Source of the DNA: a virus
Taxonomy: Duplodnaviria; Caudoviricetes
Length of the DNA stretch: 64,000 nucleotides
Direction: 5' to 3' (one strand)
IMG/VR virus record: IMGVR_UViG_3300044634_000910
Coordinates: 16,435-80,434 of that record
Shown piece by piece: positions 47,201-53,063 of this stretch. Below the pieces are notes generated by a model that was not told the origin of the DNA, searched no databases, and worked only from the letters and a program-made list of their open reading frames with translations. Every line of letters begins with the position of its first letter. The first letter of the stretch is position 1. The translations under genes were made by a program, and so were the position numbers.

Positions 47201-50200
47201 TTCTTAATACCTCAATTTGTGTATCGTAGTATTTAGACAAAGAGTCTTGCTGTGCCTGTGCTAATTCTAATGATGAAACTCCTAGTGCTGCAGTAGTTGC
47301 TGCTGCTTTTTCTCCTGCTGATTCTGTAAATACTGGAGCAAAAAATTTCGCTGGATTCCACCATTGGTAATCTTGTCCAATAGCATCCTGCATACCCTTT
47401 ACAACATCTTCATTAATCTTTCCTTGTTCTCTTACTAGATTAACTCTAACATTTAGTGGGTCAGTCTTAAGGTCTTGTCCTTCTGGTCCAATTAGTTCTA
47501 AAAGGTTTCCACTAATCTGAGATGTCAATGTAGAGTTATTTAATTCTATTCCTATTTGACTTGCTACGCTGTGAGCCTGTTCTGCTGACATAACACCATC
47601 AGAAACATATGCTGCTAACTGTAAAGATATTTGCTTTGCAGATGCAATTCCTCCAGCAGTTAAATTTTTCTTAAATGATTCATATACTGTCTTGCCAACC
47701 TCAGAGGATATGAATGTTTCTCCAAATTGCTCTTTACCTCTTTCAAATCCTGCAGTAAATCTATTGCCAGTACCCTGCTGTCTTTTTCTTTTATATAACT
47801 CGCTGGCTCCAACTTTGTCTGTTATTGCTCCGACTGCAGACATTTGCTCAGTTGTTGCCGTGACTTTATCAACAAATTTTGACTGGCTTTCTGCTGCCTT
47901 CTTTGCCATTTTGTCTAATATGAATAGACCACCACCAACTGTTACAAGTGCTGTTAATGCTAATCCAAAACTAGACATACCAGCAAGCATTGGTGCCATA
48001 CCAGCAACTGCAGATGCACCCATTGCAGCCATACCCGCCCCTTGCTGTCCAGCCATCATAAGACCCATACCAGCAGTTCCAAGGGCCATAGATGCTCCAC
48101 CAGACCATCTACCAACCTTTTCTTGTCGAAGCATTCTTTGCTTCTTGCTGTCAATTGCACGATTCATCCTGTTTGCTTTATCTTGATCTTTAGATGCCTG
48201 AATAATTCTTGTTTGTCTGTCTCTTTCGATTCTGTCTAATCTAGCCTGTTGAGCAGCCTGTTGCTTTGGAAGTTGTTCTGCACGTCGTGCAGCCTTTGCT
48301 GCTGATGCACCTTCCTTTTCTTTTGACTTTATTATATTTTCGTCAGCCTTTAGTTTTCTTCTTAACGTATCCATTAATTGAGTTTCGCTCAAGTTTGGAT
48401 ATTTGGTTGCAATCTTTTTAAGTTCTTGTCTTTGATAAGGAGTTAATTTAACACTTGAATCTCCAGTAGACTTAGAACGCATCGTAAATCCACCCTTACG
48501 GGCTTGGTCTTTAGTAACTACTCTCTTTGTTTGAGTTTCTTCAACAGTTAAGTTATCACTTGTTTTCCCTGTTGATGGCGATGCGCCCATTGGTCTTGAT
48601 TGAGTATTGCCAACAGAAAGTTTATCTGCTGTTCTGTTTTCTAAATCTGCTAAGTATTCTCCTGGTTGTGCTAGAACTGAGCCTGGTCCAAGGCGATATA
48701 TAGTAGGAGTTCCTTGATAGTATCCACCGCCAAGTCTTTCTCTAAGAAGCAGAGAAACTGCCTTAGCCTGTTTTACAGAACCAAGGTCTGGGAAACCCTT
48801 TGGCTTTGCGCCGTTGTTTTCCTTTTTGTATTTTGCTAAATGTTCATCTGCACGAACTTGTGCTTCTGCTGCTGCACGAACTAGTCTTGCTTGGGCTTCA
48901 GTTACAGGGTGTGCTCCTGTTTTCATAAACTCTAAAGCCTTTTTTAATTCTGCTGTTTGTGTTGGATTAAACAACACATTGCCATTTCTAGCATCCCAAT
49001 TCAAAATCTTTGCTAGTCTTGGATTTTCAATTGGCTTCCCTGGCTTGCCTCCTGGGTTTACATAACTATTAATTAATCGCAAATCAAACTTAGCAAAACC
49101 ACTCTTCCATTTTTCTGGACCCAAGCCAGCCTCTCCAGTTTTTGAAAGATGTGACAACTCTGTTCTCAACATGGCATCAATTTGTTTTACAGTATAGCCA
49201 TCTGCAAGCATTTGAGTTCTTAATTTATTTAAAACAACATTCTTTGGATTTTGAACATTTCTTGCTTTATGATCTTTCTCTGCGGCATCTAGGGCCTTGT
49301 ACAAATCACTCTTTGGATCAATATTTGCTCTCCAGCCACCAGATTGAGTTGTTGATGTTAGGTCTTCGTGCAGTCTACCTGGAGTAAATGGTTTATTGCT
49401 AAATGTTTCTTTACCAGGTTTTGGAGCAGCACCCATTCTATACAATATCTGATTTTTTATAGCATCATAAGTTTTTGCAGAAGTTGTTGGGCTTTGGCCT
49501 TTTTCTATAGCCTTGGCCGTGTGAAATGCTCCATCTTTATAAAATAAATTTTTTTCTATAAAGTCTGAATAAACTTTAGACTCTTTAAAGTTTATGGAGC
49601 CATCTGCTTTTGGAGTAACTCCAGATTTTTCTAATAGCGCCATTGCTTTTTTATATTGTGCTGGGTTTGTATTTTTTAATTCTTTTAATGTATTTTCTAT
49701 ATCTTGATTTAATTGTTTAACAAGTTTATCAATTTGTGTTTTTGATTTATCACGCAGAGCAGCCATTTCATATAGCGATTGTTGTTTTTTAGTTTCAGAA
49801 GGCGTTGCGTCTGAATTAACACCCTTTTTTGCTTTTATAACATCCTGTCCAGCACGAGCATGGATTGGCTGGAATTCATCCCATTCTACTTTTGCGCCAG
49901 CCTTAAGTCTTTCAAGCATATTGTTATAAACAATTTTTTCCTCTGGAAGTAAGTCACGATCCCAAGACTTAATAACTTTTTCCACTATAGGAATGCTTCT
50001 ATTAATCTCTCCCTTAATTTCATCGTCATATTGCTTTGGGGTCATCTTTGCTGCGATTGGTGCTGTTGCTAGTGCAAAATCTTTTCTTGCTCCACCCTTA
50101 ACACCAAGGAGATTAACCATTGCCTGCTCTCTAAAACTTGGCATATTTTCAGCGTAGTCTCTAAAACCAGATGCTCTATCAAATACTCCAGCATTGCTTA

Positions 50201-53063: not shown

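Follow-up and report, generated by a model that had tools for sequence, protein, structure and literature searches.

A protein-kinase-like domain inside the giant tape measure protein of an uncultivated tailed phage

Tape measure proteins (TMPs) fill the lumen of the phage tail, are the first to exit it and extend as far as the inner membrane, as in lambda, T5 and HK97. To our knowledge they have been viewed as rulers and channel formers whose only known enzymatic modules cut the cell wall, such as the muralytic motifs carried by the TMPs of TM4 and T5. A phage kinase that acts on host proteins early in infection is known from T7, where the protein kinase gp0.7 is made after entry from an early gene and is neither carried in the virion nor structural. 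A route for takeover or counter-defence before phage gene expression has, as far as we know, been seen only for head-packaged proteins. Here we describe a protein-kinase-like (PKL) domain within a 3947-amino-acid (aa) TMP encoded in a 64,000-nucleotide stretch of tailed-phage DNA (the window), positions 16,435 to 80,434 of the IMG/VR virus record IMGVR_UViG_3300044634_000910, which is 80,434 bases long and has a completeness estimate of 73%.

Several described proteins invite comparison. The toxin kinases HipA/HipT and the H. pylori kinase CtkA are atypical Ser/Thr kinases; the domain described here belongs to no toxin-antitoxin gene, being an internal module of a virion protein, and has no conserved His at D+2. 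The spore-coat protein kinase CotH (PF08757) is 9% identical to the domain and has no hidden Markov model (HMM) match to it. The PI3K/PI4K types, including PI4KII-alpha and the Legionella proteins MavQ and LepB, have a DRH histidine that this domain lacks, and the context here is a bacterial virus. The enzyme-bearing TMPs of TM4 and T5 likewise have a catalytic module downstream of a conserved N-terminal part; their muralytic modules, however, cut peptidoglycan outside the cytoplasm without ATP, whereas the kinase fold described here is ATP-dependent.

Kinases have already been predicted in polyvalent phage proteins, together with an action on host proteins, by Iyer et al. 2017 (PMC5512222), where T7 gp0.7 is cited as a precedent. 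Those are likewise kinases within a large, virion-carried and presumably ejected phage protein. By its description in the text of that paper, however, the kinase clade lacks the whole C-terminal subdomain and carries an insert between the catalytic-loop His and Asp, whereas our domain, as modelled, retains a C-lobe of helices and lacks a conserved His, and so does not answer to that description. The carriers differ as well: here the tail tape measure takes the place of a head-packaged MuF or portal fusion, and the PI3K/PI4K-like folds in BFVD are parts of portal-, MuF- and ART-fused phage proteins; the term "tape measure" has 0 occurrences in the main text of PMC5512222. A full-text literature search, with few subscription journals within its scope, found no report of a kinase in a TMP. 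Although the idea of a phage-delivered kinase is known, both the family and the carriage of an ATP-dependent enzyme by a TMP seem not to have been described before.

The kinase-like domain and its carrier

A sequence-only reading of the window had proposed a HipA/PI3K-like kinase at 49860-50550, inside a TMP, from a Gly-rich loop with a lysine, a helix-C-like glutamate, a catalytic loop and a DFG equivalent. The four strings it quoted (GIGGVYRKPNGKIVVVKP, TALAEV, LLRGDKDLQKSN and DVSNAG) are all present in the minus-strand translation, within the open reading frame (ORF) 41220..53063 of 3947 codons; the plus strand of 49860-50550 has many stops and is non-coding. This interval encodes residues 839-1068 of the TMP. 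The features of the gene, all on the minus strand, are as follows.

41220..53063, minus strand: gene of the tape measure protein (3947 aa), beginning with TTG (ORF list, translation and start region)
51078..52961, minus strand: N-terminal tape-measure module, residues 35-662 (PHROG, Pfam and NCBIfam profile matches)
51300..51419, minus strand: hydrophobic segment, residues 549-588, upstream of the kinase (Kyte-Doolittle window 19, mean at least 1.6)
50925..50954, minus strand: PAMLSPGEAV motif, residues 704-713, first of three copies (regular expression on the translation)
49851..50699, minus strand: kinase-fold domain, residues 789-1071 (ends of homologue matches, predicted model, fold matches)
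50484..50537, minus strand: Gly-rich loop and beta-3 lysine, GIGGVYRKPNGKIVVVKP, residues 843-860 (G846 and K859 invariant)
50454..50456, minus strand: helix-C glutamate E870, within TALAEV, residues 866-871 (131/131 sequences; in model helix 76-91)
50226..50261, minus strand: catalytic loop LLRGDKDLQKSN, residues 935-946, of the form R-G-D-K-D941-L-x-x-x-N946 (after model helix 136-149)
50187..50204, minus strand: DFG equivalent D954-V-S/G followed by A-G-V-F; DVSNAG is residues 954-959 (D954 in 131/131)
47913..47990, minus strand: further hydrophobic segment on the downstream side of the kinase, residues 1692-1717 (hydropathy scan)

Profile matches bore out the placement of the motifs inside a TMP. 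Residues 35-662 match phrog_10030 (E 1.3e-97) and eight further TMP PHROGs, nine in all; PF10145 matches residues 251-452 at E 1.2e-27, above its cut-off, and TIGR01760 matches residues 208-565 at E 4e-32. The position of the gene agrees: on the minus strand the order is portal, prohead protease, capsid, Ig-domain protein, two phrog_10504 ORFs, the TMP, a 218-aa ORF and a 1438-aa minor tail protein, which is a siphovirus tail module. By these sequence matches the N-terminal part of the 3947-aa ORF is a bona fide tape measure protein.

To assess conservation, we aligned with MAFFT 131 sequences, the query and 130 segments spanning query positions <=45 to >=270, with 20 partial hits excluded. 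K859, E870, N946, D954 and G846 are identical in 131/131 and D941 in 130/131; the invariant columns include G836, S838, G846, K859, E870, P885, Q930, N946, D954 and Y1046. Y848 is kept in 127/131, and position 939 holds D in 124 sequences and N in the other 7. The five residues needed by a kinase (K/E/D/N/D) are among the dozen or so best-conserved positions of the family, as the sequence-only reading had anticipated for homologues. Its alignment of D-L-Q-K-S-N with the D-x-H-x-x-N pattern, making D941 the catalytic Asp, agrees with the D-x4-N spacing. It had also remarked on a Q at the His position; this phage does have Q there, but the residue (943) is not a conserved one, being S in 53, Q in 31 and G in 22 of the 131.

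The domain was modelled with AlphaFold2 (AF2) from a 33-sequence alignment of residues 789-1071, and the model has a mean predicted local distance difference test score (pLDDT) of 90.8 and a predicted template modelling score (pTM) of 0.87, so that the kinase fold expected from the motifs was indeed predicted. An N-terminal helix (797-816) precedes a two-lobed kinase core at ~829-1071, and homologue matches regularly stop near query residue 283 (the query starts at 789), which gives the C-terminal limit. The elements of the model follow in the order strands, helix 76-91, two strands, helix 136-149, short strands and five helices. K859 lies at the end of strand 67-72, E870 in helix 76-91, D941 and N946 in the loop after helix 136-149, and D954 after the short strands; placed in this way by the secondary-structure elements, K, E, D-x4-N and the metal-binding Asp stand in PKL order. 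The five helices that follow the DFG equivalent (189-282) complete the two-lobed PKL fold.

Structure comparison of the model matched CtkA, HipA/HipT, PI4K, PI3K/Vps34 and CotH. The top Foldseek match in the PDB was CtkA, with E 3.6e-4 and a template modelling (TM) score of 0.39, the sole hit at E<=1e-3; the rest of the list consists of kinases and pseudokinases throughout. By these scores, protein and lipid kinases are not told apart. Among the viral predicted structures of BFVD the best matches had E 1.1e-5 to 7e-4 and TMq up to 0.51, and were parts of 490-1340-aa proteins of phages and archaeal viruses named portal, ADP-ribosyltransferase or PI3K/PI4K catalytic domain protein. Residues and predicted fold together show that residues 789-1071 are a catalytically complete PKL domain, and this domain is very probably an active phosphotransferase.

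The BFVD entries include A0A6J5S481, A0A6J5PWC9_2 and A0A6B9L6W7, which have similar kinase-like folds in 955-1340-aa proteins annotated as portal or as ADP-ribosyltransferase. Annotations may understate how often virion proteins carry a kinase.

Family assignment and relatives

Likeness to HipA, CtkA and PI3/PI4 kinases, part of the sequence-only reading, stood in the fold and failed in the sequence, where the domain belongs to none of the HipA, PI3_PI4_kinase and CotH families. At E<=1 neither PF00454 nor PF18640 matched the domain, which also lacks the His of the PI3K/PI4K catalytic loop G-D-R-H-x-x-N. PF07804 (HipA_C) had no match to the domain at E<=1 and none in the virus record at E<=0.01, and PF08757 (CotH) matched neither the domain nor anything in the record. 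The conserved His of the HipA-type D-x-H-x-K-N motif was not found as a conserved position in the 131 sequences. The 131-sequence family was also compared by hhalign with 11 CotH and 18 HipA sequences from genome loci, two wrong-frame loci (L102 and L112) being excluded; in the HipA alignment, which is insignificant, E870, D941 and N946 pair with the "E" and the "N~D~H~KN" of the HipA-family consensus, a register in agreement with D941 as the catalytic Asp. The nearest named clusters in the ESM Atlas were LepB_N, PI3_PI4_kinase and HipA_2, at 0.92-0.93, and serve as leads only. We conclude that the domain represents a new, sequence-isolated family in the atypical HipA/CtkA/PI3-4K/CotH/Fam20 part of the kinase fold. 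It adds to the atypical kinases a family that current HMM libraries miss.

A phmmer search of 1.84 billion protein cluster representatives with residues 789-1121 as query gave 161 relatives at E<=1e-3, of which 152 also pass E<=1e-10 and 131 pass E<=1e-30, and members diverge to about 30% identity. Nearly all of the 161 are proteins of 2000-4500 aa; among the matches listed, 115 of 150 representatives have at least 2000 aa (median 2873 aa). The N-terminal TMP module is also matched by 113/150 of those listed, and the remaining 37 mostly start within the kinase or are short fragments. The 10 short relatives (155-496 aa) all come from contigs no longer than 6,599 bases, and their matches span 40-98% of the domain; because the contigs are small and the cover partial they look like fragments, and no stand-alone form of the domain was seen among them. 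Source annotations of the relatives, where present, read "phage tail tape measure protein" or "hypothetical" and never kinase.

In IMG/VR, 195 viral contigs or stretches encode a relative, and the sequences of the best 80 of the 195 were fetched. A scan of 185,579 species genomes gave only 2 loci, each of them on a contig of a metagenome-assembled genome; the labels of these contigs are discordant, and therefore no host was assigned. Neither tblastn of the domain nor megablast of 10 kb of the window gave a match in 50,697 deposited phage records, a set that may lack records close to that of the window. In the sets examined, the family is found only within giant TMPs of uncultivated tailed phages.

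The distance between the N-terminal match and the kinase varies. In 43 of the 113 TMPs there are at least 200 extra residues between the two, an additional module of ~250-650 residues before the kinase (P0103, P0069, P0125 and 40 others), and in P0057 the kinase starts only at residue 2183. Because an extra module precedes it in these 43, the kinase behaves as a movable cassette. One further locus, L085:2001-2815, has 19 stops in its stated frame and was left out of the alignment, yet tblastn gives 67% identity over residues 2-273; it could be a frameshifted or split copy, or reflect a coordinate offset.

Proposed delivery with the tape measure and alternative explanations

The reading that we favour is that the TMP delivers the kinase. 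The domain would travel with the TMP in the tail lumen and exit ahead of the DNA. It would meet ATP on the cytoplasmic side of the inner membrane and, while no phage gene is yet expressed, phosphorylate a host target, more likely a protein than a lipid. Two hydrophobic segments of the TMP, residues 549-588 and 1692-1717, flank the domain and would hold it at the membrane. Because TMPs fill the lumen and leave first, the kinase would be delivered in few copies per infection; the entry of few TMP copies would fit a catalytic cargo. We infer the ejection and the substrate from what is known of TMP ejection, and for the whole chain, from delivery to a host target phosphorylated before phage gene expression, we put the chances at about even. 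A more specific form of it is tentative: the TMP may be a vehicle by which a host protein (e.g. a defence or translation factor) is phosphorylated before expression, for takeover or counter-defence, widely within a large uncultivated clade of giant-TMP phages. If a conserved, catalytically complete ATP-dependent kinase does reside in TMPs, the tail lumen would carry effector cargo and parts of a TMP would reach the cytoplasm folded and active. The domain is an expressible unit of 283 residues with K859, D941 and D954 as sites for point mutants, which makes enzyme delivery by a TMP directly testable.

Several observations count against a delivered kinase of this kind. The fit of a folded domain of ~30 kDa in the lumen of the tail tube may be a question. 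The domain has no match in Pfam (E<=1), NCBIfam (E<=1) or PHROGs (E<=0.01), and neither phmmer nor hmmsearch with the family profile gave a useful match among PDB sequences at E<=10 (the single phmmer match, a nanobody at E 1.3, we regard as chance). The hhalign probability is 0.6% against CotH and 0.9% against HipA, where the control comparison of CotH with HipA gives 86.5%. The structure matches are loose, with a root-mean-square deviation of 4-5 A over ~200-220 residues, 8-14% identity and Foldseek TM scores of 0.39-0.44. The spacing from Asn to Asp is short (8 residues), and the glycine of D-x-G, written D-V-G in the family and present as G in 126/131 sequences, is S in 5, among them the TMP of this phage.

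The same domain might instead work in the producer cell, as an assembly kinase that, late in infection, phosphorylates the TMP, tail chaperones or other virion proteins in the cytoplasm, much as CotH does with spore-coat proteins, and that the completed tail would simply carry along. Against this, the lead of CotH over PI4KII-alpha, MavQ and CtkA in the structure comparison is less than 2.5 Z units and its hhalign probability is 0.6%. No tail is known to us whose assembly depends on phosphorylation. Those TMP families of cultivated phages that have the same N-terminal module lack the domain (PHROGs, and tblastn of the 50,697 phage records), and because they lack it the domain is not needed for tail building as such. 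An assembly role is therefore unlikely, though it fares best among the alternatives to delivery.

The domain could also act on the envelope rather than on a protein. Like PI4KII, MavQ, LepB or WaaP, it would then phosphorylate a lipid, a sugar or another small molecule, such as a membrane lipid or an envelope precursor at the inner membrane, and so aid channel formation or disturb the membrane. PI4K and PI3K/Vps34 are among the structure matches, but the protein kinases CotH, CtkA, HipA, Fam20C and ATM score equally well, and the family has no DRH histidine, its position 943 being variable. We regard an envelope substrate as distinctly unlikely.

Kinase-like folds are known from other families to support different activities, and the domain might be an AMPylase or glutamylase of the SelO/SidJ type, or a non-catalytic, nucleotide-binding structural plug. 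A pseudokinase would not be expected to keep the K/E/D/N/D set near-invariant across 131 sequences down to ~30% identity, as this family does, and neither SelO nor SidJ is among the 50 structure matches listed, which is weak evidence; other chemistry, or none, is accordingly very unlikely. Chance motifs in a long low-complexity protein, for which a 3947-aa sequence offers many look-alike opportunities and the lack of any sequence-model match to the domain might speak, are refuted by the 131 matches at E<=1e-30, in which the motifs are invariant columns, and by the confident kinase-like model, so that their probability is negligible.

Other parts of the tape measure gene and of the phage

The TTG start codon of the TMP gene lies eight bases 3' of AAAGAGGTG. 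Directly upstream of the gene are two neighbouring ORFs, 53086-53412 and 53442-54176 (minus strand), both of which match phrog_10504, the longer also phrog_10474. They occupy the slot expected for tail assembly chaperones, and from this position a chaperone role is inferred for them; they are separate and form no obvious frameshift pair.

The TMP has three copies of the decapeptide PAML[ST]PGE[AF]V, at residues 704, 3195 and 3872 (50925-50954, 43452-43481 and 41421-41450, minus strand). Each copy follows a stretch rich in Gly and apparently marks the border of a module; the motif might be a cleavage site or a docking site. Among the 128 homologues with at least 150 aa upstream of the kinase, a looser form of the motif is present in 0, 1, 2, 3 or 4 copies in 9, 36, 34, 38 and 11 sequences, respectively, and a PAMLxPGE-type motif lies at most 200 aa upstream of the kinase in 62.

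Near the C-terminus of the TMP there is a second conserved, globular-looking module, residues 3540-3790 (41694-42446, minus strand), with the invariant blocks H-R, GPGLYSxTS, ITDPFMQ, GYxGYR and TNWGVGNxPGM. It was found in 7 viral contigs only and has no Pfam match. Its R / S-x-S pattern raised a suspicion of an ADP-ribosyltransferase, for which we make no claim; the AF2 model of these residues, from 5 sequences, has a pLDDT of 44.9.

The phage encodes its own replication set, on the minus strand:

26150-29470, minus strand: DnaE-type Pol III alpha with PHP domain
31334-32554, minus strand: DnaB-like helicase
30105-31049, minus strand: DnaG-like primase
25150-26166, minus strand: RecA

Elsewhere in the window, the protein encoded at 15878-17713 (minus strand; 611 aa) combines a PA14 domain with a PT repeat and is possibly a carbohydrate-binding receptor-recognition protein, and there is a single tRNA-Asn (GTT) gene at 13527-13600 (minus strand). 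A flavin-dependent tryptophan halogenase is encoded at 7563-9116 (minus strand; PF04820, E 9.9e-104), an auxiliary gene that is unusual for a phage.

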